Source of the DNA: Bryobacterales bacterium
GTDB lineage: Bacteria; Acidobacteriota; Terriglobia; Bryobacterales; UBA6623
DNA: 64,000 nucleotides
NCBI GenBank assembly: GCA_965261065.1
Contig: OZ253444.1
Coordinates: 7,414,902-7,478,901 of the forward strand
Reading direction: 5' to 3'
Below, one piece after another: positions 33,202 to 48,327 of this stretch; the stretch's first letter is position 1, and the number at the start of each line of letters is the position of its first letter. Under the pieces are notes generated by a model. It ran no database searches and was not told where the DNA came from. It worked only from the letters and a program-made list of their open reading frames with translations. Position numbers and translations under genes: made by a program.

Positions 33202-33262
33202 GGGCACACTTTTGGACACACCTTTGGCCTGGCCATCAGGTTGACTCGACCCAAGTGTGCCC
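33202..33262. repeat. 10-bp perfect inverted repeat GGGCACACTT ... AAGTGTGCCC bracketing 41 nt just upstream of the recombinase gene
   Basis: Read directly (33202-33211 and 33253-33262). It ends 18 nt before ATG 33280. Confidence 0.8.
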
Positions 33263-33279
33263 TCCACTGGAGGGCTAAC

Positions 33280-33957
33280 ATGGATGCAGTCTACTTCCGG
33301 GTCTCGTCTGACCGGCAAACCACCGAAAACCAATTCGCCGACCTACTCCAGGTGGCTGAGAAGGACGACTCAGAGCGCGACTGGACCTCGATCCGAAAGC
33401 TTCTCTCGTACTGCGTTGTCGAGGAGGAAGTGCGCGGTCAAGGTGTAAGCCGCACCGTCTACCGCGTCAACCCAGTCGTCGCTGACCGTCTCGCCGACCT
33501 CTGCATCTACGTTGAACAAAGCAAGTCCGGTCGCAAGGGCGCCCGATCTCGTCCGATGTTCGAGCGCATGAAGAAGGACGCCGCTCTCCGTAAGTTCGAC
33601 CGGCTCCTCGTGTGGAAGGTCTCACGTCTCGGCCGCGACATGCGTGAGGTCATCTCGACCGTCTACGATCTATCCGATCTCGGCATCACCGTCGTGCCGG
33701 TGAAGTCTCAGACCGGCCCAATCAACTCCACCATGGGAAAACTGCTCTGGGCAATCCAGGCCTGGTTGTGCCGGTTCACCCGGAACTGGAGAGAGGCCGT
33801 TCTCCGCAAGTTAGTTGTTCCGCCTTATTCGCCGATTCCTGCTGGTCGTTTCGCACGGCGGCCCGCGAGCGGGTCGCCGCCTTTCTCTGCATACCGGAGG
33901 CGCCGCGGGACGCGGCCAGCCGAGGCGCGACCCCTTGGTTTAGAGCCGCGCGCGTAA
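33280..33957 (+). CDS. Serine recombinase (resolvase/invertase family) with atypical insertion and non-canonical C-terminus
   Basis: MDAVYFRVSSDRQTTENQ (catalytic Ser motif) and ...FDRLLVWKVSRLGRDMREVISTVYDLSDLGITVV...MGKLLWAIQAW.... About 50 extra residues follow the first motif. After AWL the sequence no longer resembles the usual E-helix/HTH. Start set at ATG 33280 behind GGAGGG. Confidence 0.65.
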   Translation: MDAVYFRVSSDRQTTENQFADLLQVAEKDDSERDWTSIRKLLSYCVVEEEVRGQGVSRTVYRVNPVVADRLADLCIYVEQSKSGRKGARSRPMFERMKKDAALRKFDRLLVWKVSRLGRDMREVISTVYDLSDLGITVVPVKSQTGPINSTMGKLLWAIQAWLCRFTRNWREAVLRKLVVPPYSPIPAGRFARRPASGSPPFSAYRRRRGTRPAEARPLGLEPRA

Positions 33958-34249: not shown

Positions 34250-34627
34250 ATGTCGGTCTTGAAAAACACGGTGCTAGCTTCTATTGGTTTGTTCGAAATC
34301 ACGAAAGCGCGCGCTGAAAGGATCATCGATGATCTCATCCAGAAGGGCGAGCTCAGTCGATCAGACCGCAAGAAGGCCGTGCTCGAGCTCCTGGACAAGG
34401 CCGAGCAATCGAGCGCGCGTTTCAGAAAGAAGGTGCTCAAGGAGGTTGATCAGGCACAGAGTGCAGTATCCAAAATGGCGGAGGACCTCAAGTGGGCGCG
34501 TCAAACAGAGATGCAGAAGCTACAGAACAAAGTCAGCCGGTTGACGAAAGCCGTAGACGCGCTCCAGAAGAACACGGAAACGACCAAGCAACCGGCCCGA
34601 GCCAGAAAACGAAAGAAGAAGCAATGA
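34250..34627 (+). CDS. Phasin-like coiled-coil protein (PHA synthesis regulator/phasin family-like)
   Basis: 125 aa. N-terminal ...LASIGLFEITKARAERIIDDLIQKGELS..., then a coiled coil and a Lys/Arg-rich tail. Family call by eye. Confidence 0.5.
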   Translation: MSVLKNTVLASIGLFEITKARAERIIDDLIQKGELSRSDRKKAVLELLDKAEQSSARFRKKVLKEVDQAQSAVSKMAEDLKWARQTEMQKLQNKVSRLTKAVDALQKNTETTKQPARARKRKKKQ

Positions 34628-34797
34628 GAAGAAGAATCGCTGGAGCGTTCTAAGCAGCAGAAGAAAGGATGCCGGCGCCCCTGGAGGCAAAGCGGTTGAC
34701 GCGCCGAACCGAAGGCAGGGCTGAAGTCGGCGCCTTCGGATCACCGACGCTTCCTCGGGCAGGGTTTCATCCGCTGACGTTCACTCGGGAGTGCCAT

Positions 34798-34831
34798 CGA
34801 TGCCCCGAAAGAATCATGAAAAGGGGCATCG
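34798..34831. repeat. Stem-loop CGATGCCCC-N16-GGGGCATCG, 30 nt upstream of the XpaC-like gene
   Basis: 9-bp perfect inverted repeat read directly. Function unknown. Confidence 0.6.
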
Positions 34832-34860
34832 AGGTATATGACGATCGCTAAACGACTCCG

Positions 34861-35445
34861 ATGAAGATGAACTCCAAGCAGTGGCTGTTGGCGATCAGCG
34901 CCGGGATTGTCGTCGGCGCGGGCGTGTACCTGATGCTCCCGCTGATCGTCGTGGCCGCCGTGAGCGCGGTCGTGGCCTCGCTCGTGGCCATTGTGGTCTA
35001 CCAGTATCTCGACGGGCAGACCAAAGTGAAGGACGTGCCGGCTAAGACCGATCCGCGCCAAGAGCTGATGTCCCTGCTTGATCGCCTTGTCGCACTGAAC
35101 ATCGACATCCGCGAGGCAGGGCTTGCGTCGGACGTGCTTCTCCGGGTGGAGACCATCATTGACAAGCTGCGCGATCTCCTTCCTGAGCTCAATGAGCGGT
35201 ATCCTGGACATGAGTTGGCCTGGACTCTCAACCAGATGGCCCGGGAGTATTTGAGCAAGGTCGTCCGGCCCTACGTGGCTTTGTCCGAAGCCGATCGGGC
35301 CGAGCGGAAGCAAGAGCTGCTGAAGAGCTTGAACGGAGTGGAAGCAGAAGTCGACAACGTTGGGGAGCTGGTTCAGGGCGACAAGAAGGGAGACTTCAGG
35401 GCAAAGGCGGCGTTCTTGCGCGCCCGCTTCGTTCAAGAGTCCTAG
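34861..35445 (+). CDS. XpaC-like (5-bromo-4-chloroindolyl phosphate hydrolysis protein family-like) membrane protein
   Basis: 194 aa. Two N-terminal TM helices followed by a helical cytoplasmic domain. Sits immediately upstream of telA, as in the Bacillus xpaC-yaaN arrangement (from memory). Confidence 0.5.
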   Translation: MKMNSKQWLLAISAGIVVGAGVYLMLPLIVVAAVSAVVASLVAIVVYQYLDGQTKVKDVPAKTDPRQELMSLLDRLVALNIDIREAGLASDVLLRVETIIDKLRDLLPELNERYPGHELAWTLNQMAREYLSKVVRPYVALSEADRAERKQELLKSLNGVEAEVDNVGELVQGDKKGDFRAKAAFLRARFVQES

Positions 35446-35472
35446 CGACCGAAAGAGGAGGATCGATCCACC

Positions 35473-36684
35473 ATGAGCGCAGGCAACCCGACACAACCGG
35501 CAGCCCCGGCCGAGGCGGCTCAGCCACCACCCGTCGCTCTGACTCCGGTGAAGCCCAAAGGGCTGGAATCCGAAGACGAGAAGCGTCTGCAAGAAACGGC
35601 GTTGCAACTCGCCGGCGAGGTTCACCAGGACGCCGGCAACCGGCAGGTCGCGAGGAGGCTGAGCGCTCTCGGCGTGCGCGAGCAGCAGAAGGCTTCCAAG
35701 GAGATCGGCCTTCTGAAAACGCGCGTCGGCACGATGCTCGGCCAGCTCGAAGGCGAAGGCGCCGAGATCCCGAGGACGCTGATCGAGCTGCGCCACACGA
35801 TGGACGAAATCAATCCCAACGTCCTCAGCCAGCCGACCGGGATCGCAAAATGGGTCGGCAAAGTACCCGGCGTGGGCACGGTCCTCAAGAGGATTGCGGT
35901 CAAGTACGAGTCCGTCCAAACCCAAATCGACCACATCATGAACGGGCTGCGGCACGGCAAGGACAAGTTACTGCAAGACAACGCTGAGCTGGAACAGCTT
36001 TACGAGCAGGTGGGACTGGCGCAGCGTGGGGTGCAGGAGAGCGCCTACATCGGAGAGTTGCTGTGGCAGAAAATTGAAGACAAGTTGGCGGAAGCAACGG
36101 ATCCTGCCGAGCGGCAAAAGCTGCAAGCGATGATGCACAGGGTCGCCATGCGGGTCCAGGACCTGCGCACGATGGAGCAGGTCAATCTGCAGTTTTTCGC
36201 CTCGATCGACATGACGATCCAGAACAACGACACGCTCTGCGAACAGGTTGACCGCACCGTCATGGTAACGCAAAGCCTGTTGACGGTCGGTTTGGCCATC
36301 CAGGCGGCTCTGGCGAGTCAGAAGCAGATCGCCACCGCCGTGAAGAGTGTCCAAGAGAGCACCGCGGCGATGCTTGAGGCCAACGCGGCGGCGATCGGCC
36401 GGCAGACGGCGGAGATCGGCGAAATGCAGAACAACCCCGTGATCGCTCTCGAAAGCGTGAAGAAAGCCCACAACAGTCTGATTGAGGCGATGGACAAGAT
36501 GGAGGAGATCCGCGCCGTCGGAACCGAAAAAGCGAGAGCGGGTATCGCTGAGTTGAACAAGATGTCGGCTGCGCTTGAGCCGAAGGTCGAGGCGTTGCAA
36601 GCAGCCGGCGATCTTCCGCCTGCGCAGCTCCCCGGGGCGACGCCGCCAGAACCGGAGGAGAAGCCGGAGCAGCCGGCATCGTAG
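35473..36684 (+). CDS. telA: TelA-family toxic anion resistance protein
   Basis: 403 aa, with GAGGAGG upstream. Long helical protein with TelA-like stretches ...TLIELRHTMDEINP..., ...KYESVQTQIDHIMNGLRHGKDKLLQDNAELEQLYE..., ...MEQVNLQFFASIDMTIQNNDTL.... Confidence 0.8.
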   Translation: MSAGNPTQPAAPAEAAQPPPVALTPVKPKGLESEDEKRLQETALQLAGEVHQDAGNRQVARRLSALGVREQQKASKEIGLLKTRVGTMLGQLEGEGAEIPRTLIELRHTMDEINPNVLSQPTGIAKWVGKVPGVGTVLKRIAVKYESVQTQIDHIMNGLRHGKDKLLQDNAELEQLYEQVGLAQRGVQESAYIGELLWQKIEDKLAEATDPAERQKLQAMMHRVAMRVQDLRTMEQVNLQFFASIDMTIQNNDTLCEQVDRTVMVTQSLLTVGLAIQAALASQKQIATAVKSVQESTAAMLEANAAAIGRQTAEIGEMQNNPVIALESVKKAHNSLIEAMDKMEEIRAVGTEKARAGIAELNKMSAALEPKVEALQAAGDLPPAQLPGATPPEPEEKPEQPAS

Positions 36685-36741
36685 GACGGAGTCTCTGAGC
36701 CACACCGATAAAGCCGCGGCTACTCAGCCCTTACCACAAAC

Positions 36742-37359
36742 ATGGCAACCCTCCTCGATCCCGCCCGGCGCAAACGCTATGAAGAGCAGTTCGCGGCGAT
36801 CCGTCAAATGCCGAAGCCGGTTCCGCCCGGCGATCGCCACAAATACTCCATCGAAGACGTCAAGAACGGGGCCTACATCCGCTTCGGAGGCAAATCCTAC
36901 CGCGTCGAGAGTACCAACGTGTATGAACGAAGCGGCTATCGCTGGCCCGAGCTTGTTCTCCGCTGCCTGCACGACGGCGAGACGCAGTACACCGAATGGG
37001 AGAAGGAAGACGAGGTTTCGGTCTACGTATCGCGGGAGAAGCTCAGCTTCGCCCAGGTCGGATTGAAGGGCAAGGAAGAGCTGTGGGAGATCTCTGAAGA
37101 GGAAGAAGGCGTGGCGAGATATGGGAGAAGGGTCTTCCACTACCATGAAGACTCCGCCGTGACCTTCTACCGCGATGGCGGCGAGCAGGGCGTGCCCTTC
37201 CACCAATACCTCTTTGCCGAGGAGGGCAGCAAGGCGTTTATCGGCATTGAAGAGTGGGGAGACGAAGACGACGGGTATGAGCACAACGTGGTTTTGAGTG
37301 AATACTTGAATCCAAGTGCCATCGAGGTCTTGGTGGCCGGAGGCGGCAAAAGTGGCTGA
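36742..37359 (+). CDS. DUF4178-like protein
   Basis: 205 aa. Two similar beta-rich halves (…GAYIRFGGKSYRVESTNVYERSGYRWPELVLRCLHDGETQYTEWEKED… and …VFHYHEDSAVTFYRDGGEQGVPFHQYLFAEEGSKAFIGIEEWGDED…), as in DUF4178. Call by eye. Confidence 0.55.
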   Translation: MATLLDPARRKRYEEQFAAIRQMPKPVPPGDRHKYSIEDVKNGAYIRFGGKSYRVESTNVYERSGYRWPELVLRCLHDGETQYTEWEKEDEVSVYVSREKLSFAQVGLKGKEELWEISEEEEGVARYGRRVFHYHEDSAVTFYRDGGEQGVPFHQYLFAEEGSKAFIGIEEWGDEDDGYEHNVVLSEYLNPSAIEVLVAGGGKSG

Positions 37360-37975
37360 GGTCGTTTATAAAGACAGGTCGGCCGGCGACCTGCAGCTTC
37401 ATCTCTTCAGTAACCTCGTTGACCCGGCTCTGTTCACCGTAGTGCGCCAGGGCCGCGTATTGGCGAACGGGATGCGGATCGACGCGTACATCCTGGGAGC
37501 CAGCCATTTGATCCGTTTTCGCGCCGGAGCTGGTTGCCTGAGCGAGGTTCTGGTATGCTCGGACACCGTGTTGCAGACGTGGCCCGGGAGCTGCGTGTCG
37601 CACAATCCCGTCCGCGGACGGTTGGATCTGGAGTTGGACAACGTCGCGTACCGCTTCAACGGAGGACTGCTGCGTCGCGGCACGGCCGAAAGCCTGCTGG
37701 GGGATCTCAAGACCCGCGTGGCTAAGGCGCGGACGCGGCAGGACGAAATCGGGCTCTCGTTCGAATTTCCTACCGGAGTCCGGCTGGAGAAGCCCGCCGA
37801 GACGCTGCTGTGGGCGCGGCTGGGCGCAGCGGGCGCCGAGATCGAGACGGTTCATTCTTATCCGTCAGAAGACTCCTTGGTGTGGACGCGGTCGTCGGCG
37901 GTCCGGACCGTGGGCACGCGACCCGGCACGTCCCCGACCCAAGAGGTGCGGCAGCCTGTTGAAATCGTGGAGTAG
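37352..37975 (+). CDS. Hypothetical protein (207 aa), translationally coupled to the DUF4178-like gene
   Basis: GTG at 37352, 7 nt after GGAGG, overlapping the upstream stop (GTGGCTGA, 8-nt overlap). No family recognised with confidence (possibly DUF2617-like). Confidence 0.6.
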   Translation: MAEVVYKDRSAGDLQLHLFSNLVDPALFTVVRQGRVLANGMRIDAYILGASHLIRFRAGAGCLSEVLVCSDTVLQTWPGSCVSHNPVRGRLDLELDNVAYRFNGGLLRRGTAESLLGDLKTRVAKARTRQDEIGLSFEFPTGVRLEKPAETLLWARLGAAGAEIETVHSYPSEDSLVWTRSSAVRTVGTRPGTSPTQEVRQPVEIVE

Positions 37976-38002
37976 TTTCCGCGGCCCCGCCTGACGGGGC
38001 GT

Positions 38003-39613
38003 GTGTGGATCCGCCATATGAGCAGATATCTGACAGCCACTCTCCTGGTTCTGCTGACGGCTTGCGGTGGCCTGCCTGATGTTACCGTCAGCCTCGCCGA
38101 AGCCATTCACAAGCGAGTCGGGCAGACCAGACAGGAGGTGGACGCGCAAGAGCAAGCGTACCGGCAGTTCCAGGAGTCGGCCCAATACGGCCCCCTTGCG
38201 CGATACGCCGAGAAAGAATCTTGGGCGCAGAAGTTCACCGCCGCCCGCAAGATGCTCGACTCTGCGGAAACTCTCTATCAGAAGACCGTCGCCCCGATCC
38301 TCGAAAGGGACGATGAAAAGGAGCTGCGGACTCTCAACGACAACCTCAAGAAGATCTCGCCGCTGACCGCCAGCGCTCGGAAGATGTCGGTGGAGTGGAA
38401 GGAGCGAAGCGATTTCATCACCCAGAGCCGCGAGCACGCGCCTGCGCTGATCCGCGGCGCAAATGCAGACTTGCAAAAGCAGAGGGATCAGAATCAGGCT
38501 GTCAGCAAGATCGCGGCCCAGACCGCCGGCGAGTTTCCGGCTCGCAAAGAGGACATCGGCAAACTGCTCCAGCCCCTGACGGCACTTGTGAACCAATCCG
38601 AGACGGCACACGAAGCGATCCGGGGCGAGTCAGGCAAAGTCGGGTCCGATGACGCCGACTACGCGTTGATCGGCGACAACCGTCAGATCCTCTCGGAGAA
38701 CGCCACGAGATTCGAGGAGTCCGGCGCGCAGGTCACTGCAAAGCTAGGTGAGCTTTCGCGGAGCTACTCCAAAACGCTGATCGACATGCAGGCTGTGTAC
38801 TCCGTGATCATCCGGCGGTACAGTTGGGATGACTCGCTCAACTCCCCGAGGGTGCATCACTACGACTATCGCCCGCGTCAGGTGGATCTGGAGACGTACA
38901 ACAACCTCACCGGCAACACAGCCGTGGGCCTAGGGCAGTGGAAGGCCGGCTGGTTTAGTAGCGGACTGAAGCTTTACAGGCATGTCGACCCGAGGCGATG
39001 GGACACCCTACGGATCGATCCCCGAGAGAGTTGGCCCAGCCGCAACGACAACGCTGCCGAATACTGGGTCGAGGACGACAAGGTGAACTACTACCACAAG
39101 TACATGGTGCTAGAGAACGGGGAGACATCCGAGACCGCCCTCGTTGCGGTCAGCGTAGCACTCTTCCTCGCCAACGTCGACAACCTGGGCATGGACGTCG
39201 AAGCGAAACCGTACGGCAGCTTCGAGGATGAAAAACTGGCCCACGCCGCCCCGCCCGGGATGGCCTACGTCGGGAACCCAAGATACGGTCACTGGGCCTC
39301 AGACGGCCGGGGAGGGAGCGTCTGGACTTGGATAGGACCCTATTTGCTCTACCGGAGCCTGTTCGGGACGCCCTACTACTACGGTCGGAATACTTGGTCC
39401 ACTTGGTCGGGCGGCTATCGGGGTTCACGCCCCTACTATGGCGGCACGGCGGCCGCACCGTTGTACGGAACAAGAAGTAAGACCACCCAAACCTCTCCCA
39501 GGTATCAGAACTCCGCCTTTGGCCGAACGGGAGGCTTTCGGCGGGTGTCAGCGTCCGTACGAGGAGCGGGACCGGGGAGTCGCGGGGGCGGTTTCGGTGG
39601 CAGTGGAAAGTAA
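38003..39613 (+). CDS. Lipoprotein (536 aa) with coiled-coil N-terminal half and Gly/Arg/Tyr-rich C-terminal tail
   Basis: Lipobox LLTAC near the N-terminus (alternative start ATG 38018). The tail is ...GGYRGSRPYYGG...FGRTGGFRRVSASVRGAGPGSRGGGFGGSGK. No family recognised. Confidence 0.7.
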   Translation: MWIRHMSRYLTATLLVLLTACGGLPDVTVSLAEAIHKRVGQTRQEVDAQEQAYRQFQESAQYGPLARYAEKESWAQKFTAARKMLDSAETLYQKTVAPILERDDEKELRTLNDNLKKISPLTASARKMSVEWKERSDFITQSREHAPALIRGANADLQKQRDQNQAVSKIAAQTAGEFPARKEDIGKLLQPLTALVNQSETAHEAIRGESGKVGSDDADYALIGDNRQILSENATRFEESGAQVTAKLGELSRSYSKTLIDMQAVYSVIIRRYSWDDSLNSPRVHHYDYRPRQVDLETYNNLTGNTAVGLGQWKAGWFSSGLKLYRHVDPRRWDTLRIDPRESWPSRNDNAAEYWVEDDKVNYYHKYMVLENGETSETALVAVSVALFLANVDNLGMDVEAKPYGSFEDEKLAHAAPPGMAYVGNPRYGHWASDGRGGSVWTWIGPYLLYRSLFGTPYYYGRNTWSTWSGGYRGSRPYYGGTAAAPLYGTRSKTTQTSPRYQNSAFGRTGGFRRVSASVRGAGPGSRGGGFGGSGK

Positions 39614-39622
39614 TACGAGGAC

Positions 39623-40528
39623 GTGATGCAATTCATTGAGACTTTCGTTCACGGTGCGGTCGACACCCTTTTTGTCTTTCTGATCCTTCTGTTAGCCAAG
39701 AAGCTCCGAGACGCGCGCTTTCGTGCCGCCGTGGCTCCGGCCGACGGAGGCGATTCCGTAGAATACACCGCCGATTACCAAATCGAAGAAGAGAGCAATC
39801 TGGCGGTGGCCCTGCACCGCTGTGGCTTGAGCATTGGTTTCGGCTTCGGTCTCGCCGGGATCGTCAGCGGAGGGGTCAGTCGCTTCTCGGCAGGATGGGA
39901 AGTAGTGCTACGAGACACCGGAGAACTGCTGCTCTCCTGTGTCCTGTTGCTTGTCTTTCTGTTCGTGGCCGAGTTCGTTGTTGAAAAGATCATCTTGCGC
40001 AATGTTCACAACACTCGCGAACTCAAGAATCGCAACACCGCCGTCGGATTCGCGGAGTTGGGCAGCTATACAGCTACCGGCCTGATCGCATTTGGCTCGT
40101 TTCAGGGTGAGGGTGGAGCGTGGTATACAGCCGCCGGCTTTTTCTTCATGGGGCAGGCGACTCTGATCCTGTTCGCGCTGATCTACGACTGGGTCACGCC
40201 GTTCAACATCGTCAACGAGATCCAGAAAGGCAACGCGGCCGCCGGGTTGATGCTTGGCGGCACTCTGGCCACGCTGGGTATCATCCTCAGCTTCGCTATC
40301 GCCGGTCCCTTTACCGGGTGGACCGAGGGAATCACCGGCTTCGCCATCAGCGCGCTGGTTGGGATGGCCCTGCTCATTCCCTTCCAGATGTTGATCGACA
40401 AGGCTTTCCTGCCGCATACGACCCTCCAGATCGAGGTCGAGCGCGATCGTAACCTTGCCGCCTGTTCAGTGACCGTCTGCGCCCAGATTGCGCTCGCCAT
40501 CATGATCGGCGCCTTGGTGGCGGTTTAG
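39623..40528 (+). CDS. Integral membrane protein built from four DUF350-like repeats
   Basis: 301 aa. Four units share an acidic/Asn motif followed by a small-residue helix: IEEESNLAVALHRCGLSIGFG, ELKNRNTAVGFAELGSYTATG, EIQKGNAAAGLMLGGTLATLG and EVERDRNLAACSVTVCAQIALA. Confidence 0.65.
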   Translation: MMQFIETFVHGAVDTLFVFLILLLAKKLRDARFRAAVAPADGGDSVEYTADYQIEEESNLAVALHRCGLSIGFGFGLAGIVSGGVSRFSAGWEVVLRDTGELLLSCVLLLVFLFVAEFVVEKIILRNVHNTRELKNRNTAVGFAELGSYTATGLIAFGSFQGEGGAWYTAAGFFFMGQATLILFALIYDWVTPFNIVNEIQKGNAAAGLMLGGTLATLGIILSFAIAGPFTGWTEGITGFAISALVGMALLIPFQMLIDKAFLPHTTLQIEVERDRNLAACSVTVCAQIALAIMIGALVAV

Positions 40529-40544
40529 CGGCACGGGGGCGTCA

Positions 40545-41600
40545 GTGACGGCTCGTGCTCGTTTTCGCCGGCTTCGCGACACTCTGCTGCGTATCGTCCA
40601 CAAGGCCGGCTGGGCATGGCTCGGGGCCCTCCTGCTGACACTCTACGTGCTCGGTGCAGCCCTGATGCCCTTCTTCGAGGGGCCTGACAGCCCGCTGGCT
40701 TCGATACAGGATTACACCTGGTGGTTCGTTGTGACCGCCACGACTGTGGGCTACGGCGATATCGCCCCCGGCTCGCTTGGCGGGAGGGCGGCCGCGGTGG
40801 TCATCATGCTGTTCGGCATCGGTGTCATTGCCGTCGCCGTGGCAAAGTTGGCCGAGTCGGTTATTGATTTTGGAAGGAGGCGCATGAGAGGTCTGACCCA
40901 ACTGAGCGAAGCAGGTCACCTTGTGATCTTCGGCTACACCAAGGGAGAAACCGAGAGCCTCATCCGGGAGTTCAGACAAGACAGGAGCGCGGAAGACCTC
41001 TCGATCGTTCTTTGTTCCTACCTGGTTGAAGAGAACCCCCTACCGGACGATGTGAAGTTCGTCAACGGTGACTTGGCGTCGGACGATGTGCTGGACCGCG
41101 CCTGTGTCGCACGGGCGGCCAGCATTCTCATCCACGGCCACGACGATAATGAGACGATCGTTGTTACCCTCGCGGCTCGCAGCGTCAACTCTCACGTTCA
41201 CATCGTAGCTCTGCTGCGGCAGCCCGAAAACGAAATGCATCTGAGGCGAATTGACCCAAACATCGAATGTGTCACGCCACTGTCGGTTCCCCTCATGGTT
41301 CAGGCGCTTCAGGACCCCGGGGCGACGACGGTGATCTCGTCCTTGTTGAGCAACTCGACCGACGACACGATCTACCGTTTGAACGTTTCCAATACGAGCC
41401 GCACCTGGAACTTCGGCGCCTTGCAGCGGGCGTTCAAAGATCGCCTTGGCGCCACGCTGGTGGCCGTGGCATCGGGCGATGCGGTTGGCGACGTGGATCT
41501 CAATCCAGCCTCGGATTTCGTGGTCAAGCAGGGAACGTCGCTTTTCTATATCGCGCGCCGGCGAATCCTGCCCCAGGAAGTCGCTTGGGATGAGCTCTGA
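40545..41600 (+). CDS. Two-TM potassium channel with C-terminal RCK/TrkA-N-like domain
   Basis: 351 aa. TTVGYGD selectivity filter between two hydrophobic helices, then a Rossmann-like region (GHLVIFGYTKG...). Confidence 0.85.
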   Translation: MTARARFRRLRDTLLRIVHKAGWAWLGALLLTLYVLGAALMPFFEGPDSPLASIQDYTWWFVVTATTVGYGDIAPGSLGGRAAAVVIMLFGIGVIAVAVAKLAESVIDFGRRRMRGLTQLSEAGHLVIFGYTKGETESLIREFRQDRSAEDLSIVLCSYLVEENPLPDDVKFVNGDLASDDVLDRACVARAASILIHGHDDNETIVVTLAARSVNSHVHIVALLRQPENEMHLRRIDPNIECVTPLSVPLMVQALQDPGATTVISSLLSNSTDDTIYRLNVSNTSRTWNFGALQRAFKDRLGATLVAVASGDAVGDVDLNPASDFVVKQGTSLFYIARRRILPQEVAWDEL

Positions 41601-41603
41601 CCA

Positions 41604-43169
41604 TCAGGCGTAGTCGAGATCCCGAAAACCGAAGCGCTTGAGCACGCGGTCCGCCGCTCGCACCCCGCGATACTGCGCTTCTTCGAAGATCGAAATCCCG
41701 CTTAGATCGGAACTCGCAAACTGGATCGGTCCGTCCCACTCTTCGAGCCGTTTTCGTGCTTCGGAGGTAATGAATCCGACGCCGGGGCGAATCATGGCGT
41801 GTCCCAGCCGCATCACATCAATCCGGCGTGTGCAATTGCGGATGTCCGGGTGGGCCTGCTCGAGATCGCGCAGAATCTCTTCTTTGCGCTCATCCCAGTT
41901 CGTCTCCAGTAAGGCGGCCCGCCCCATGCGGGGGGAAGCCTCCGTCAGGGCCCGATAGTACGTCCACACCGTCTCCGCCCCGGCCGCCCCGCGCCCTTGG
42001 TGTGTCGCTACCACATATCCGAGCCCGGGGGAGTCGTACAGGATGTTTTCCCAGGCCGGGGAAGCGCCGCTCTCCCGTGGAGTACAGTCAAGCGTCACAT
42101 TGGCCGTATACCAAGGTGAGTATTCGTGCCGGGCCATCGAGGGGAAGTCAGGGCCAATCTCAGGAATGATGTAGGGAGCCAAGAAGGTCGGCGCCGCGAA
42201 GATGACAGCCGAGCAACTGTAGACCACGTGCTCGGTCAACACCTCAAGGCCGCCAGCAGACCGAAGGATCCGATGGACCGACGCCGACGTTCGCAGGTAG
42301 GGGTGTAGCCTCTCCAAGAGCCGCTTGACGATCCAACCGTTTCCCTCGGTCCAGGTCAGGACTCCGATGTCTTCCCTGGGGCGCGCCGCGAAGTAGTGGA
42401 TACCCGCCCAGGCCGAAGTGTCGACGTAAGACACGCCGTAGTCGTCACGACAGGCATAGTCCACGTACCATCGCAGTTTGGACGAGAAAAACCCCTGCTC
42501 GATCATCCAGGTCTTCATCGAAATATGATCCAAGTCTTTGGTTTGCCCAGGCCGCTGAATGGGGATCGTAAACTCCCCTCCTTGCCGGTAGTAATCCATG
42601 CGGTCCCAAAAGCGATCGAACTGATCACGGTCCGATTTCGAAGCATCAGGACCCGGTTCCAGCCCTTCCTGCCAGTGGCCATCGAGGAAGAGCCGCTGCT
42701 GAGGCTCTTTGCAGAAGTGCCCGGTATCCCAGCGGCCCTCCTGGATCACACCTAGCTCTTCGAACAGCTCCTGAACCAGTGGGATTCTCTTATCCGGTAC
42801 CGGTATGTAGTGTGCGCCCCATGGATAGGCGCTGACTTCGTTCTCTCCCCAGCGAGAGTTTCCGCCGGCTTGGTCTTCCAGCTCGAGAACGACAAAATCC
42901 TCAAACCCAAGCCTATGCATGCGCCAGGCAGCGGAAAGCCCGGCGATACCGGCGCCGACCACGACCACAGGGGCGGTCACACTCTCGCGAGGCGGGGGGG
43001 GAGACTGCGAGTCACGAATACGGTGACCCGCGACGTGGCCCCGATCGACAAACGAGCCTTCAATCGGGCGGTCAGGGCGAAAAAGGAATGCCGCACCTGC
43101 CGTGGCCACGCCACCTACGGCGGCCGTTTGCAGCAGTCTTCGTCGCGAGATGCCGGGCCGGTCTGCCAT
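41604..43169 (-). CDS. Tat-exported FAD-dependent amine-oxidase-like oxidoreductase
   Basis: 521 aa. SRRRLLQTAAVGG twin-arginine signal. Dinucleotide-binding VVVVGAGIAGLSAA...LELEDQAGGN. Confidence 0.75.
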   Translation of the reverse strand: MADRPGISRRRLLQTAAVGGVATAGAAFLFRPDRPIEGSFVDRGHVAGHRIRDSQSPPPPRESVTAPVVVVGAGIAGLSAAWRMHRLGFEDFVVLELEDQAGGNSRWGENEVSAYPWGAHYIPVPDKRIPLVQELFEELGVIQEGRWDTGHFCKEPQQRLFLDGHWQEGLEPGPDASKSDRDQFDRFWDRMDYYRQGGEFTIPIQRPGQTKDLDHISMKTWMIEQGFFSSKLRWYVDYACRDDYGVSYVDTSAWAGIHYFAARPREDIGVLTWTEGNGWIVKRLLERLHPYLRTSASVHRILRSAGGLEVLTEHVVYSCSAVIFAAPTFLAPYIIPEIGPDFPSMARHEYSPWYTANVTLDCTPRESGASPAWENILYDSPGLGYVVATHQGRGAAGAETVWTYYRALTEASPRMGRAALLETNWDERKEEILRDLEQAHPDIRNCTRRIDVMRLGHAMIRPGVGFITSEARKRLEEWDGPIQFASSDLSGISIFEEAQYRGVRAADRVLKRFGFRDLDYA

Positions 43170-43263
43170 TGCCGCTGGTGTCGGGGCGAAAACGGAACCT
43201 CAGTATACAAAACAGGTTGGACGTCGCCAGCCGAAGCCCGGATGGTAGAATGGCTGGCACTCT

Positions 43264-44994
43264 GTGCCCGGTCCGATGGAGACGTCTCACTCGCAAACAC
43301 TCTCTGTTTCGACAATCCAACCCCGTGTCGCGACCGCCCTGCTTGCTCTGTCGATGTTCTTCACTGGCGCGAGCGGGTTCATCTTCGAGTGCGTCCTCAG
43401 CACCGTAGCCACGTACATCCTCGGCAATAGCATCGAGCAATTCTCCGTAACCATCTCCCTCATGTTGCTCATGATGGGCGTAGCGGGCTACTGGCAGCAA
43501 AGGCTCAGCGATCGTCGTTTGGTCGAGAAATTCCTGACGGTCGAAGTTCTCTTGGCGTTGCTGGGCGGCTTCGCCCCGACCGCGGCGTACGCGTCCTACG
43601 CGACGATGGAGAGCCACTTCTCCTTGGTGCAGTACTTTTTCGTCCTGGCGATTGGTTTTCTGATTGGTCTCGAGATTCCCCTCGTCTTGCGCATTAATCG
43701 ACAGTACGTCCCGACGCTCAAATCGAATATCGCAACGGTCCTCAGCACGGACTATATTGGCAGCTTCATCGGCGCCTTGGTGTGGGTGTACTTCTTCCTG
43801 AAGTATTTTCCACTGACCGAAATCAGTTTCTTTGTGGCGGGAGTCAACTTTGTCGTCGCAGTGGTTACTTACCTGTACTTCATGCGGCATCGGGCCGTGG
43901 CACGGCCGTTTGTTTCATTGCTCTTGATCCTACTGACTGCTTCGGCGCTCGGCTACGGTTACACCCAGAACCGAGTGTGGAACCTCCTTCTCGAGCAAAG
44001 GTTCTATGACCAGCCGATTGTTTATTCCAAAACCACGAAGTATCAACATCTCGTGATGACGGCCGGCGTCAGGCCCGTCGATTACCGCCTCTATATCAAC
44101 GGCAACTTGCAGTTCTCAAGCCGCGACGAACACATTTACCACGAACTGCTCGTGCACCCGGCTATGAGTTTGGCCGCCCGTCGCGATCGGATACTGATTC
44201 TGGGCGGAGGAGACGGCCTCGCACTAAGAGAGGTGCTTAAGCATCCTGACGTAGAAGAGGTTCGGCTCATCGACATCGATCCCGACATGATTGCGCTGGC
44301 ACGCGACGATGACGTGCTCAATGAGCTCAACCAAGACGCCCTCGCGGACGCGCGGGTCGTGGCGGCGGGTGCCTCCGGCGTCGCTTCGGAGACGTCCACG
44401 AGGCCCATCTACGACTACACCGAGACTCTGCCCGAATCGGGAAAGCCTGTCCTCGAGGAGGCAGCGCGGGTATCGGTATACACGGTCGACGCGGACAAGA
44501 TGGTCCAGCGCTTGTCGGGATCATGGGATGTGATCGTGGTCGACTTTCCTGACCCCAACAGCGTCGAGCTTGCCAAGCTTTATAGTCGCGAATTCTATTT
44601 GAAGCTGCGCCGTATCCTATCCAACGGCGGCATCATGGCGGTTCAGAGCACGTCTCCCTATCACTCAAAGGAATCTTTCTTGTGTGTCCGGCGGACCCTC
44701 GACAGCGTCGGATATGAGACGGTCCCATACCACGACAACGTCCCGAGCTTCGGAGATTGGGGCTGGATTCTTGCATGGCATTCTCCGAAGACGGTCAGAG
44801 ACGTTCGGAACGAGATCGCGCGGCTCGATCATTTTGGGATTCCCCAAGATCGACTGCGGTACTTGACCCCCGAGGCTTTTCGCAGTGCCTTAACGTTCGG
44901 CAAAGGAATGCTGGACTCGCACTCCACGGAAGTGAACCGTCTGATGCATCCGGTTCTGCTTCGTTTCTATCTCAGCGAAAGCTGGCAACCCTAG
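43264..44994 (+). CDS. Membrane-anchored spermidine-synthase-like polyamine aminopropyltransferase
   Basis: 576 aa. About seven N-terminal hydrophobic helices. C-terminal SpeE-fold motifs ILILGGGDGLALREVLKHP, VRLIDIDPDM and VIVVDFPDP. The exact start is uncertain. Confidence 0.8.
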   Translation: MPGPMETSHSQTLSVSTIQPRVATALLALSMFFTGASGFIFECVLSTVATYILGNSIEQFSVTISLMLLMMGVAGYWQQRLSDRRLVEKFLTVEVLLALLGGFAPTAAYASYATMESHFSLVQYFFVLAIGFLIGLEIPLVLRINRQYVPTLKSNIATVLSTDYIGSFIGALVWVYFFLKYFPLTEISFFVAGVNFVVAVVTYLYFMRHRAVARPFVSLLLILLTASALGYGYTQNRVWNLLLEQRFYDQPIVYSKTTKYQHLVMTAGVRPVDYRLYINGNLQFSSRDEHIYHELLVHPAMSLAARRDRILILGGGDGLALREVLKHPDVEEVRLIDIDPDMIALARDDDVLNELNQDALADARVVAAGASGVASETSTRPIYDYTETLPESGKPVLEEAARVSVYTVDADKMVQRLSGSWDVIVVDFPDPNSVELAKLYSREFYLKLRRILSNGGIMAVQSTSPYHSKESFLCVRRTLDSVGYETVPYHDNVPSFGDWGWILAWHSPKTVRDVRNEIARLDHFGIPQDRLRYLTPEAFRSALTFGKGMLDSHSTEVNRLMHPVLLRFYLSESWQP

Positions 44995-45029
44995 CACCCT
45001 CCTCGGTCAGGCCGTTTTCGAAGAGCCCT

Positions 45030-45662
45030 GAAGTCACGTCGTGGGAGATCTACGAGGCGCTGGAAGAGCGCGGCGTCAACTATGTGATCCGCATTTCGGC
45101 GAACAAGAACCTGGAGCTGGAGATCGAAGACATCCTGTTCCGCCCGCCGGGCAGGCCGAGTGCGAAGCCGCTGGTGCGCTACAAGAACTTCCACTATCAG
45201 GCCGCGAGCTGGTCGAAGCCCCGGCGGATCGTCGCCAAGGTCGAGCATCATCCCGGCGAGCTGTTCCCGCGCGTCGGCTTCATCGTCACGAACATGAGCT
45301 TGCCGAGCCGCTCGCTGGTGCGCTTCTACAACAAGCGCGGCACGGCGGAGCAGTGGATCAAGGAAGGCAAGCAGGCTACCCGCTGGACACGGCTGTCGTG
45401 CCATCGCTTCCGGTCGAACGAAGTACGGCTGCAACTCGCGGTACTGGCCTACAACCTGGGCAACCTGCGGCGGCTGGGGCTGTCGAGCCGGATCAAGAGC
45501 TGGTCGATGACGAGCTTGCAGCACCGGCTGATGAAGACCGGCGGTCGCCTGGTCAAGCACGCCCACTACTACTGGCTGCTGTTGGCGGAGGGACATCTCA
45601 ATCGGCGGCTGTTCGGCGAGATGCTGGCGAGGCTTGAGGCGCTGCCGGCGCCGGGAGGGTGA
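45030..45662 (+). pseudogene. IS1380-family-type transposase, C-terminal remnant only
   Basis: ...VRFYNKRGTAEQWIKEGKQATRWTRLSCHRFRSNEVRLQLAVLAYNLGN... matches the conserved C-terminal region of IS1380-like DDE transposases. The N-terminal roughly 200 aa are missing, and the fragment abuts the speE-like stop codon. Confidence 0.65.
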
Positions 45663-46098
45663 CGCAACGAGCCTTCGAGGAGCCGGTGCGCGGACTTGCT
45701 GGAGGCGGGCTCGGCGAAGTGTCGCCGAACCGACCCGCCCGAGCCTGAACGATGCGCTGGCGTGGAGCGAAACGGCCCGAAGGCGGCGAGACACAGGGAG
45801 GAACGAGGTCAGACGTGGCAGAGAGGGCAGAAACCCGTTGCGCCGAAGGCCCGAGTTCGACTACGCTAGACGCGTCGCGATTGCCAAAACGGAAATCCCA
45901 GTTTACACTTACCCCGCATCCACTGCGTCATTGACCACAGGCGTTTGGGAGGAACCCGATGAACCTACACCACTTGAGTCGGCAGGTCGCCCGATCCCTG
46001 CCACCGAGGACAAATCCGCCGTCCTTCTTGAGAGTCTAGGCCCCGCTGCAGCGCCTCAGACCGCCGTGGACCGGGAGCTGCCGCGCCCCGACCCGGCT

Positions 46099-48327
46099 AT
46101 GACCGCCCGAGACGAGGCGATCTTTCTTTTGCAGGCCGTCGCCGAAGTCGAGCACGCGCTCATGGCGCAGTACCTCTTCGCTGGATACTCCCTGAATCCG
46201 GATGCGGCTGGCATACCCGTCGACCGCGTCGAGGACGTCCGCCGCTGGAGGTCGCTGGTCCTCGGCATTGCCAAGGAGGAGATGGGCCACCTGATCACTG
46301 TTCAGAACCTGCTCCTTCTCATCGGCGGGCCGCTGCACTTCGGCCGCGAAGACTACCCTTTCGACGTCGCGCCCATCTATCCCTTCACCTTCGAATTGGA
46401 GCGCCTAACGAGGCAATCGCTGGCGAAATACATCCTGGCGGAGATGCCCGAGGAGAGCGAGCTGAGCCCGGAACAGCAAACGCTCGTCGATCAGGTGAGG
46501 GCGGCGCTCGGCGGCGGGATCATTGCGGCTCCTCACGTCAATCGCGTCGGCCAGCTCTACAACACGCTGATCCGTCTGTTCAGCCCGCACGGCGCTCCTG
46601 AAGAAGCCCCGAATCATCTGCGGGACTCCGACTTTGTGGCTGGGGCCGTAGACTTCCAGGCTCTGGGCGTCGACTGGGAAACCAACAGCGCGGCAGCCCC
46701 AACCGGCGAGCGCGCCGTGTACAACACGATGGTTCCGCCCGTCACAAACCGCGACGAAGCAGTAGCTGCCCTTCTGAAAATTGCAGAGCAGGGCGAGGGC
46801 ATGCAAGCCGGCGGTGAGGAAACGCTGGCCCACTTCGACCGTTTCTTACACCAGATCTTTGTCGAGTACCCCAACCCGAGCGAGTTCGTCCCGACCCATC
46901 AGTTCCCCGCGGACACGCGGTCCGACAGCATTCCCAACGCGGATTCCCGGCGTTGGGCGCAACTGTTCAATCTGCGCTACCGCCTGCTGCTCTCGTTCCT
47001 TCACCACAGTTTTCTCTTGCCGGGCGCGACAGCCAACCTAGAGGGCGGTCGCACGCCCCGCGGCTATTTGGTCACCTGGACGTTCTTCGAGATGCGCCAC
47101 ATCAAGAAGCTCTCTGAGCTTCTGCCGCAGCTTCCGCACGACAACAATGGCGGCTCAGCTGTTTGCGCTCCTCCATTCGAGATGCCTTACACGTTGGAGA
47201 TGCCGACCGACGCCAACCAGCACTGGCTTGCTCACCGCGAGGTCGTACTCGAATCGGAAATGCTGATCGCGCAAATTGAGGCGGCTGCGGGAGGAAACCT
47301 TTCACAGCAAGCCCAGGACTTGCTAACAATTCTCGGGCGTGCCAACGCCGAGCAAAAAGCGATCATCGACAGCATGACCGGGGGCCCGGTCGAGCCGCCC
47401 AATGAGGGTTACCAACGCGTTGTCGAGATCTTCGAAGAGGCCGTCCGCGGCTTCGAAATCGAGGTCATCCATCGGAAGTTCTGGCGTGAAGACCGAGTGA
47501 CTGCCGGACGCGTGCTGACGGAAACGGAGTTCGTTGACCTGCTTGTCGACGAGGACTGGATCGTCAAAGGCGACGCCGACGCCTCGCACATCATCACGAT
47601 GTTGCGGCGCCCGTTTCGGACCATGCCGCTCGCCAGGCCTCCGATCCCCGATAGCGAGCTCGAAGTCATCAAGGACTGGATCAACAGCCTTACGCCGGAC
47701 GGCGGCCCCGGGCCGGAACCTCAACCCGGTCCCACGGATCCTCAAGTCCACCTCGACTATTGGCGCGACTTCGACGACCAAGCCCTGTTCCAGGCCACCC
47801 CCCAGACGAACCAATCCGTCGGTGCTTTCTTCGCCCAGGTCCAGCGCTGGAGACAGTTCGCGTTGGATCCTTCTCGGGAAGCGGAATGGAACACCGCCGT
47901 CAACCGAACCGAAGTCGTTGCCGCCGTGGCCCACCTGAGCGGCATCCATGTCCAAACGGTGCAACAGCATTATGGCGACCCCATCGACCAGGCCAAGCTT
48001 TTCGACGGCTACCAGCACTTTGGCGCCAACACGCTGCCGGACGACCCGGCGCGGCCTCAAGACGTCCGGCACAACATGAACGGCGAAAGCCTGTGGTTCC
48101 GCTGGTGCGCCTTCGCCGACGCCGCCTTCTGGGAAATCGAGCTGCGAGCGATCTTGATCGGCCTCCTCAACGACGGCCTGATGCGCGGCCGCTTCACGGT
48201 CAACGGTTTCAGCCAGGACGCGACGGGCCAAGCCGCGATCATCACGTTCGTCACCGGCCTGGCAAACAACCAGCTGCAAGCCGAGACCCGGCAACGCTAC
48301 AGAGATTCCGGCCTGGCGTTCATCTAG
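46099..48327 (+). CDS. Large ferritin-like-domain protein (VioB-type ferritin-like fold) with uncharacterised C-terminal half
   Basis: ...LLQAVAEVEHALMAQYLFAGYSL... and ...IAKEEMGHLITVQNLLLLIGGP... helix pairs. The long ORF opens at 45634 inside the IS remnant. The ATG at 46099, chosen because it lies just upstream of the ferritin-like region, is used as a provisional start. Confidence 0.6.
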   Translation: MTARDEAIFLLQAVAEVEHALMAQYLFAGYSLNPDAAGIPVDRVEDVRRWRSLVLGIAKEEMGHLITVQNLLLLIGGPLHFGREDYPFDVAPIYPFTFELERLTRQSLAKYILAEMPEESELSPEQQTLVDQVRAALGGGIIAAPHVNRVGQLYNTLIRLFSPHGAPEEAPNHLRDSDFVAGAVDFQALGVDWETNSAAAPTGERAVYNTMVPPVTNRDEAVAALLKIAEQGEGMQAGGEETLAHFDRFLHQIFVEYPNPSEFVPTHQFPADTRSDSIPNADSRRWAQLFNLRYRLLLSFLHHSFLLPGATANLEGGRTPRGYLVTWTFFEMRHIKKLSELLPQLPHDNNGGSAVCAPPFEMPYTLEMPTDANQHWLAHREVVLESEMLIAQIEAAAGGNLSQQAQDLLTILGRANAEQKAIIDSMTGGPVEPPNEGYQRVVEIFEEAVRGFEIEVIHRKFWREDRVTAGRVLTETEFVDLLVDEDWIVKGDADASHIITMLRRPFRTMPLARPPIPDSELEVIKDWINSLTPDGGPGPEPQPGPTDPQVHLDYWRDFDDQALFQATPQTNQSVGAFFAQVQRWRQFALDPSREAEWNTAVNRTEVVAAVAHLSGIHVQTVQQHYGDPIDQAKLFDGYQHFGANTLPDDPARPQDVRHNMNGESLWFRWCAFADAAFWEIELRAILIGLLNDGLMRGRFTVNGFSQDATGQAAIITFVTGLANNQLQAETRQRYRDSGLAFI

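Follow-up and report, generated by a model that had tools for sequence, protein, structure and literature searches.

Polyamine/YjfL operons, both PspA-type and PspA-less, have been described computationally by Ravi et al. 2024 (PMC11237479), who suggest that membrane dynamics are linked to polyamines or aminopropylation and who refer to Li et al. 2019 for 'aminopropylation of other substrates' in such operons. Here we examined a ten-gene locus of this type in a 64,000-nucleotide stretch of a Bryobacterales genome (contig OZ253444.1, positions 7,414,902 to 7,478,901; hereafter the window), which encodes the toxic-anion-family protein TelA and, directly upstream of it, a small membrane-anchored protein referred to as X. 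The reading we favor, with a probability of roughly 0.6, is that the locus represents the TelA-type form of a widespread envelope-homeostasis operon and that it operates as one system.

Group 2 of the described operons, as in the SO_3765 region of Shewanella oneidensis, encodes a Ctha_1186 + low-complexity lipoprotein, a YjfL protein with eight transmembrane segments (8-TM), a membrane-fused spermidine synthase (TM-SpeE), CesT/Tir, PspA, DUF4178, and RHH proteins (PMC11237479). Membrane SpeE, the 8-TM DUF350 protein, DUF4178, and a lipoprotein with a low-complexity tail are common to this group and the window; unlike it, the window has X-TelA instead of CesT/Tir-PspA, contains DUF2617, follows another gene order, and lacks the RHH regulator. 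The PspA-less Rv2597-Rv2601 genes of Mycobacterium tuberculosis (TM+DUF4178, DUF2617, SIG+DUF4247, YjfL-TM, and SpeE; PMC11237479) have the same order as the window, namely, DUF4178, DUF2617, an exported protein, DUF350, and membrane SpeE, with no PspA. They differ in that the exported protein of the window is a lipoprotein (P6) rather than DUF4247, its DUF4178 protein has no TM segment, X-TelA stands in front, and DUF350 is separated from SpeE by genes for a K+ channel and an amine oxidase. Group 3, of the Escherichia coli yjfIJKLMC type, combines CesT/Tir-PspA(YjfJ), DUF2491, a 4-TM YjfL, a DUF1190 lipoprotein, and an ATP-grasp glutathionylspermidine-synthetase-like ligase, with a ligand-gated K+ channel in some operons and variants that carry AdoMet decarboxylase or polyamine oxidase (PMC11237479). 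This group shares with the window a membrane-stress effector, DUF350, a lipoprotein, and a polyamine enzyme, and its recurrent accessories are likewise a polyamine oxidase and a K+ channel that senses through a cytoplasmic domain; it differs in having an ATP-grasp ligase rather than SpeE, a DUF350 protein with four rather than eight TM segments, a lipoprotein of another family, and PspA as the effector.

In Firmicutes, xpaC-telA (yaaN) pairs (Listeria lmo1966-lmo1967, Bacillus subtilis, and Enterococcus) are induced by envelope-active peptides and affect tolerance to nisin and daptomycin. Disruption of telA in Listeria increases susceptibility to nisin, and the mutant is also 2-fold more sensitive to tellurite, a phenotype that is treated as minor and mechanistically unexplained. 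The likeness to the window lies in a small protein, encoded just ahead of TelA, that combines one or more N-terminal TM segments with a helical domain in the cytoplasm; the Firmicutes pair, however, stands alone, without DUF4178, P6, DUF350, or SpeE genes, and XpaC is not detectably related to X. Membrane speE followed by a co-directional gene for an amine oxidase with a twin-arginine translocation (Tat) signal occurs on the Ralstonia solanacearum megaplasmid (L011 9001-12214), and speE, amine oxidase, and speD, likewise co-directional, on Novosphingobium resinovorum pSA1 (L012 8182-12459). The fused SpeE proteins of these clusters are 33-36% identical to that of the window over the full length and their oxidases carry the same GHR(I/L)RD N-terminal motif, but TelA, P6, 8-TM DUF350, DUF4178, and DUF2617 are all absent; they constitute a separate conserved SpeE-oxidase pair.

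Neither the core of the locus nor its PspA-less state is new, and the same holds for the channel and the oxidase, because K+ channels, polyamine oxidase, DUF2617, and PspA-less variants are already part of the operons of Ravi et al. 2024 (PMC11237479); an initial sequence-only reading of the window, made from the DNA and its translations, had regarded the channel and the oxidase as additions to the known themes. TelA, 'toxic anion', and 'tellur' are mentioned neither in the text nor in the supplement of that study (PMC11237479), and a full-text literature search pairing TelA with spermidine synthase, DUF350, DUF4178, DUF2617, or ESCRT-III returned nothing relevant, with Anantharaman et al. 2012 (Ter systems) and Li et al. 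2019 lying outside its coverage. What is new here is the TelA-type variant of a known, experimentally uncharacterised operon family.

To place the locus in a wider context, P6 was used as the hub for a scan of one genome per GTDB species, which yielded 59 loci that were annotated with iterated hidden Markov models (HMMs) seeded from the window and Alteromonas proteins. Sufficient upstream sequence was available for 52 loci and sufficient downstream sequence for 50, and all fractions below refer to these informative sets. X, TelA, and DUF4178 were encoded directly upstream in 47/52 loci from at least 6 phylum-level lineages, with gaps of only a few bases or overlaps from X-TelA to DUF4178. X itself adjoined TelA on its upstream side in 47 of the 52, and is an obligate upstream partner of TelA. 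DUF2617 was present in 48/52 loci, DUF350 followed P6 in every one of the 50, and membrane SpeE was found in 41/50. The carriers included Bryobacterales and other Acidobacteriota, Gemmatimonadota, Desulfobacterales, Cloacimonadota, Arcobacter, Gammaproteobacteria, and an Alteromonas plasmid. Beyond Acidobacteriota, all genes of the canonical form pointed in one direction, in the order X-TelA-DUF4178-(DUF2617)-P6-DUF350-SpeE-(K+ channel).

The same arrangement emerged from other searches. TelA homologs with 77, 72, 65, and 58% identity to the window protein all lay in the order X-TelA-DUF4178-DUF2617-(~530-aa protein)-DUF350, and around these four the K+ channel, amine oxidase, and SpeE varied in presence and position. 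Precomputed Pfam calls confirmed the operon independently in a Longimicrobiales metagenome-assembled genome (MAG) and on one further contig. A tblastn search of plasmids identified the RefSeq-annotated Alteromonas mediterranea pAMCP48-600, with the order SpeE-SpeD-169-aa protein-TelA-DUF4178-510-aa protein-DUF350; relative to the window, the Alteromonas proteins matched at E values of 1e-25 over the full length (P6), 2e-18 (DUF350), 2e-7 (DUF4178), and 0.005 (X), and these Alteromonas copies were the only ones retrieved with P6 from plasmids. Clustering of neighboring genes across the loci revealed no recurrent families besides those of the operon. The co-localisation is far beyond chance, since dozens of species in several phyla share the gene order, and random juxtaposition, the outcome that this comparison could have revealed, does not apply. 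X through DUF350 together with membrane SpeE form one conserved module. The sequence-only reading, which had placed all ten genes in a single module, was thus correct for this set and for the K+ channel as a recurrent accessory, but not for the phasin-like gene at the upstream end, nor for the amine oxidase beyond Acidobacteriota.

The second line of evidence came from loci in which TelA was missing. Three MAGs labelled Chloroflexota (L039, L040, and L047) carried DnaJ-CesT/Tir-PspA-DUF4178-DUF2617-P6-DUF350-SpeE, with clear assignments for the two proteins in the TelA position (CesT_Tir_1 3e-35 and PspA_IM30 4.5e-48); lipoproteins of the window's P6 family therefore also sit with CesT/Tir-PspA. 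DUF4178 in these PspA-type loci is a divergent copy (hhalign probability of 83%), and their P6 proteins nest among those of the TelA type in a neighbor-joining tree computed without support values. None of the ten window proteins matched PspA_IM30 or CesT_Tir, and a phmmer search with the PspA and CesT proteins of L040 against a six-frame translation of the 64-kb window returned nothing. X-TelA and CesT/Tir-PspA are non-homologous in-situ replacements that occupy the same slot before the same five genes, in agreement with the initial suggestion that TelA sits where PspA usually does. In all three MAGs a gene for a J-domain (DnaJ) protein was located just upstream of CesT/Tir-PspA (7023-7502 in L040), which hints at an involvement of Hsp70 in the PspA-type variant.

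In P6, a lipobox (LLTAC) is followed by a helical bundle in the periplasm (residues ~26-252) and then by a domain rich in beta structure (~255-445); the C-terminal tail, rich in Gly, Arg, and Tyr, is disordered and has GK as its last residues. Its AlphaFold2 (AF2) model is of good quality, with a predicted local distance difference test score (pLDDT) of 84 and a predicted template modeling score (pTM) of 0.68, and a Foldseek comparison of the model with PDB gave no match (best E 0.047, TM-score 0.11). No Pfam family matched P6 at E<=0.01, and its homologs were likewise without a precomputed Pfam domain; the family comprises 1060 representatives at 50% identity (E<=1e-3). By description, the architecture corresponds to the 'LipoSIG+Ctha_1186+Low-comp' protein listed in the supplement of Ravi et al. 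(PMC11237479). The DUF350 protein (PF03994, 1e-34) contains two copies of the 4-TM model and 7-8 hydrophobic segments, and because of the two copies it is of the 8-TM YjfL type.

Membrane SpeE passed the NCBIfam NF002956 equivalog cut-off (5e-179; 596 bits versus 472) and matched Spermine_synth (6e-33). A polytopic (7-TM) domain, in which at least 5-7 hydrophobic segments were counted, is fused to the N-terminal side of the catalytic domain. The motifs YHE, GGGDG, and D-F-P-D-P, which we take to be the catalytic motifs of SpeE enzymes, are intact. Two loci from the order Desulfobacterales, L052 (labelled Desulfococcaceae) and L061, carry P6-DUF350-SpeE only, which suggests that this membrane trio is the core of the operon and is able to work without TelA, PspA, DUF4178, or DUF2617 encoded nearby. 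The genes upstream of the trio in L052 and L061 are unrelated ones (a WD40-caspase protein and LarA).

TelA matched PF05816 nearly end to end (5e-55; 187.3 bits, cut-off 30; model positions 16-330 of 332). Its AF2 model is all-alpha, with a pLDDT of 66 and a long helical hairpin formed by helices 134-207 and 211-280. The sole hydrophobic stretch of the protein, residues 263-281 (LLTVGLAIQAALASQ), is highly conserved in the family and is located at the end of the long hairpin, where the confidence of the model falls; it may be an amphipathic helix that inserts into the membrane or binds a partner.

X begins with a hydrophobic stretch of ~40 residues, corresponding to 1-2 TM segments, followed by a cytoplasmic helical domain of ~130 aa and a C-terminal motif, F..KA.FL..RF, that is conserved in alignments. 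No Pfam or NCBIfam model matched X, and five family members searched against Pfam at E<=10 were also negative. The protein had been described as XpaC-like from sequence, and this homology was undetectable: an hhalign comparison of a 19-sequence X profile gave probabilities of 12% for Listeria XpaC and 1% for Clostridium butyricum XpaC, with limited sensitivity since the XpaC side was represented by one sequence each time. X and XpaC are alike in architecture and place, that is, an N-terminal TM segment, a helical cytoplasmic domain, and a gene directly upstream of telA. The only split between X and telA that was observed is a ~2.5-kb insertion in one Bryobacterales genome (L007 / L022 7429-10000), which contains small open reading frames (ORFs) and a Uma2-family endonuclease gene.

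The soluble proteins encoded between TelA and P6 belong to two domain families. The DUF4178 protein (PF13785; 3e-9, 37 bits, cut-off 25) has no TM segment by hydropathy, and a search of a clustered protein database recovered close acidobacterial relatives only. The 207-aa protein, which the sequence-only reading had left as an unknown, is in fact DUF2617 (PF10936, 2e-16), with residues H52, H168, E65, E173, and C69 retained in >=55/57 homologs. Ravi et al. 2024 (PMC11237479) predicted that DUF2617 is an enzyme from two conserved histidines, an aspartate, and a glutamate, and the conservation observed here agrees broadly with those residues (PMC11237479). DUF2617 is predicted to be an enzyme-like beta-sandwich domain.

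ORF and coordinate checks found all ten genes where they had been placed initially, with the same gaps and the same 8-nt overlap (Table 1), and the profile-HMM searches upheld the initial calls of TelA, DUF4178, DUF350, the channel with its RCK domain, the Tat-signal flavin amine oxidase, and membrane-fused spermidine synthase. P1 to P8 share the + strand. DUF2617 starts with GTG, and the 8 nt that it shares with the end of DUF4178 are GTGGCTGA. P1 and X are 233 bp apart. The amine oxidase gene converges on the channel gene, from which 3 bp separate it, and on its other side diverges from speE across 94 bp. A promoter and terminator scan gave counts equal to the shuffled expectation, and a weak sigma-70-like site ahead of speE (43224-43251) was at chance level.

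Table 1. Genes of the TelA-type locus, with positions counted from the first nucleotide of the window
Feature	Position	Strand	Length (aa)	Annotation
Phasin-like P1	34250-34627	+	125	Coiled coil
X (P2)	34861-35445	+	194	Membrane-anchored, helical
TelA	35473-36684	+	403	PF05816
DUF4178	36742-37359	+	205	PF13785
DUF2617	37352-37975	+	207	PF10936
P6 lipoprotein	38003-39613	+	536	Without Pfam model
DUF350/YjfL	39623-40528	+	301	PF03994
K+ channel	40545-41600	+		Ion_trans_2 + TrkA_N
Amine oxidase	41604-43169	-	521	PF01593, Tat signal
Membrane SpeE	43264-44994	+	576	NF002956

The remaining three genes are accessory or external to the module. The K+ channel (Ion_trans_2 7.5e-16, 58 bits versus 22.5; TrkA_N 6.7e-10, 39.8 versus 23.8) is a 2-TM protein with a readable TTVGYGD selectivity filter and a cytoplasmic RCK (TrkA_N) domain. 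It is not a Kch ortholog, as its match to the Kch-like model NF007828 (2e-24, 86 bits) lies far under the E. coli Kch equivalog cut-off of 425. Channel genes were found in 15/50 loci, either upstream of X, behind DUF350, or behind SpeE; these three different placements suggest that the channel is a repeatedly recruited accessory.

The amine oxidase matched PF01593 (Amino_oxidase) over its full length (6e-11; 42.7 bits, cut-off 19.8; positions 1-443 of 443). The public gene call for this protein is 454 aa long and has no signal, and the 521-aa ORF includes one: a twin-arginine SRRRLL upstream of the GxGxxG motif for flavin adenine dinucleotide (FAD). SRRRLL is retained in 32/33 homologs, a set that includes the oxidases adjoining membrane speE in Ralstonia and Novosphingobium, indicating that the longer start is right and that the enzyme is, as predicted from its sequence, exported by Tat. 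The gene was present in 25/50 loci overall and in 0/23 outside Acidobacteriota; its linkage to the operon is limited to that phylum, and in Ralstonia and Novosphingobium the oxidase belongs to the separate SpeE-oxidase pair. P1 had been called phasin-like, a marginal assignment in that the short NCBIfam phasin-related domain NF047773 was passed (38.1 versus 35) and the Pfam Phasin family (PF05597) was not (26.3 bits, under the 28.8 cut-off). Because P1 was present only in the 7 closest Bryobacterales species among the 59 loci, its membership in the module was rejected as improbable.

Several observations concern the surroundings of the operon. In the window, one flank holds a serine-recombinase (Resolvase) ORF with an odd C-terminus (33241-33957, +), and the other a DDE transposase fragment (44757-45662, +) followed by a large Ferritin-like ORF (45634-48327, +). 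Four metagenome contigs (L001-L004) encode a TelA identical to that of the window, in the same gene order and with variable flanks rich in insertion sequences (IS); upstream, their IS110 and IS1595 insertions are not the same, a sign that IS elements are active in this population. On the Alteromonas plasmid (L010 1-1500, 13604-15028) the operon lies ~4 kb downstream of the cas6 gene of a type I-E CRISPR-Cas system, with several small hypothetical genes between; its immediate upstream neighbor encodes a DNA cytosine methyltransferase, and the plasmid region is thus an accessory one rich in defence genes. The operon was also detected on MAG contigs labelled Nanoarchaeota, Bathyarchaeia, Patescibacteria, and Kaiserbacteria (L049, L053, L056, L057, and L060); these contigs are probably mis-binned, because an envelope operon with lipoprotein, Tat, and 8-TM components is implausible in those taxa.

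If the locus is one system, its invariant heart would be a membrane unit composed of P6 on the periplasmic side, the 8-TM DUF350/YjfL protein, and the membrane-fused aminopropyltransferase, to which DUF4178 and DUF2617 would be attached as soluble cytoplasmic proteins. To this would be added a membrane-peripheral helical 'effector pair', consisting of X and TelA here and of CesT/Tir and PspA in the sister operons. X may tether TelA to the cytoplasmic membrane on its inner face, or recruit it there, and at this site TelA could act as PspA would in the sister operons, binding and stabilising stressed or remodelled membrane. The membrane SpeE unit may either make a polyamine at the membrane or aminopropylate an envelope or membrane substrate. 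In Bryobacterales, two accessories would be added: an amine oxidase, exported by Tat, that could act outside the cytoplasm to remove the amine product, and a K+ channel gated by its RCK domain that could adjust K+ and the membrane potential. In this scheme we infer from families and gene positions the biochemical activities, the PspA-like role of TelA, and what the channel and the oxidase do; the same applies to the idea of the sequence-only reading that damage sensing is coupled to polyamine turnover and K+ flux, which we would treat as a suggestion. A more specific version, which we advance tentatively and would not ourselves bet on, is that TelA and X are a non-homologous functional analogue of a PspA/ESCRT-III effector and its CesT/Tir partner, acting at a P6-DUF350-aminopropyltransferase trans-envelope machine that remodels envelope charge through aminopropylation or local polyamine synthesis.

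A number of results weigh against the one-system reading and temper the confidence we place in it. No sequence-profile similarity between TelA and PspA was detected (hhalign probability of 0.1%), and a Foldseek search of PDB with the TelA model, itself of moderate confidence (pLDDT 66), gave no match with E<0.08; the top 50 matches were generic helical bundles with no PspA/ESCRT-III entry among them, and a sequence search of PDB with TelA retrieved designed helical proteins only. The analogy between TelA and PspA is therefore one of gene position. In addition, the P6 search patterns came from TelA-type operons, so that the sample over-represents TelA and the fraction of 47/52 overstates its frequency relative to PspA with this core. 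In 9/50 loci no membrane SpeE was encoded within 10 kb. In the window, speE is probably transcribed on its own, because an oppositely oriented gene stands between it and the rest, and no speD, the source of decarboxylated S-adenosylmethionine, was found in the 64 kb. Finally, a literature search for functional studies of Rv2597-Rv2601 in M. tuberculosis returned none.

Some of these points would be expected if the locus were an assembly of two or three self-sufficient units (X-TelA, DUF4178-DUF2617-P6-DUF350, and SpeE with or without the oxidase) that travel together without a common mechanism. Each end of the operon does occur by itself, as xpaC-telA pairs in Listeria and Clostridium and as SpeE-amine oxidase(-SpeD) in Ralstonia and Novosphingobium, P6-DUF350-SpeE exists without TelA in L052 and L061, SpeE is missing near the nine loci mentioned above, and within the window the oxidase gene runs on the opposite strand and a separate promoter for speE is probable. 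We nevertheless consider such an assembly unlikely: X-TelA is tightly followed by DUF4178 in the 47 loci and at least 6 phylum-level lineages noted above, no unrelated genes are interleaved, and where TelA is absent its slot is taken by the PspA pair, another membrane-stress effector. That the slot is filled rather than empty speaks for a function that one system requires at this place. Within the one-system reading itself, a variant that is quite possible, though we would give it well under even odds, holds that membrane SpeE aminopropylates a non-polyamine substrate (a lipid, envelope polymer, or protein) and so changes surface charge, with TelA or PspA buffering the change in the membrane and the periplasmic oxidase reversing the modification. 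The citation of Li et al. 2019 by Ravi et al. for 'aminopropylation of other substrates' fits this variant, as does the fusion of SpeE to a polytopic domain that is always beside polytopic DUF350 and a lipoprotein; the Tat-exported oxidase would act outside the cytoplasm, so free cytoplasmic polyamine would not be its substrate. Against it, the enzyme passes the NF002956 cut-off for polyamine aminopropyltransferases, and the sequence points to no candidate acceptor.

Two further explanations take the operon out of envelope homeostasis. The family name of TelA would suggest a tellurite or toxic-anion resistance determinant, and the Listeria telA mutant is indeed 2-fold more sensitive to tellurite; yet the partners of TelA here are polyamine and membrane proteins, the literature deems the tellurite phenotype minor and mechanistically unexplained, and no TerA, TerB, TerC, TerD, TerZ, or TehA/B-type genes occurred within 10 kb among the Pfam-annotated loci and neighbor clusters, all of which makes this explanation highly improbable. 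We rate lowest the proposal that the operon is mobile-element cargo, for example an anti-phage or competition island. Its patchy phyletic distribution, the resolvase gene, DDE transposase fragment, and IS110 and IS1595 copies around the window locus, and the plasmid-borne Alteromonas copy near CRISPR-Cas and DNA methyltransferase genes would suit such cargo, but in most genomes housekeeping genes flank the operon and mobile-element genes are not shared, PADLOC produced generic Rossmann or methyltransferase-type matches only, and the components are membrane-homeostasis families. An envelope-homeostasis operon acting as one system hence remains the reading we prefer.

TelA is widespread, is induced by envelope-active antibiotics, and affects tolerance to nisin, daptomycin, and tellurite. 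The presence of X-TelA in the slot of PspA and its chaperone, within an otherwise identical operon, provides a strong genomic argument for a PspA-like task and turns the question of TelA function into swap, localisation, and stress experiments. It also means that the PspA-linked polyamine/YjfL operons, including Rv2597-Rv2601 of M. tuberculosis, make up a family broader than previously described, in which effector modules are interchangeable and the periplasmic component is a lipoprotein family lacking a Pfam model, with about 1000 clusters and a fold that is predicted confidently but matches nothing in PDB. If TelA and X are indeed an analogue of PspA, this would give TelA a mechanism and would represent a second, independent bacterial route to PspA-type membrane protection.

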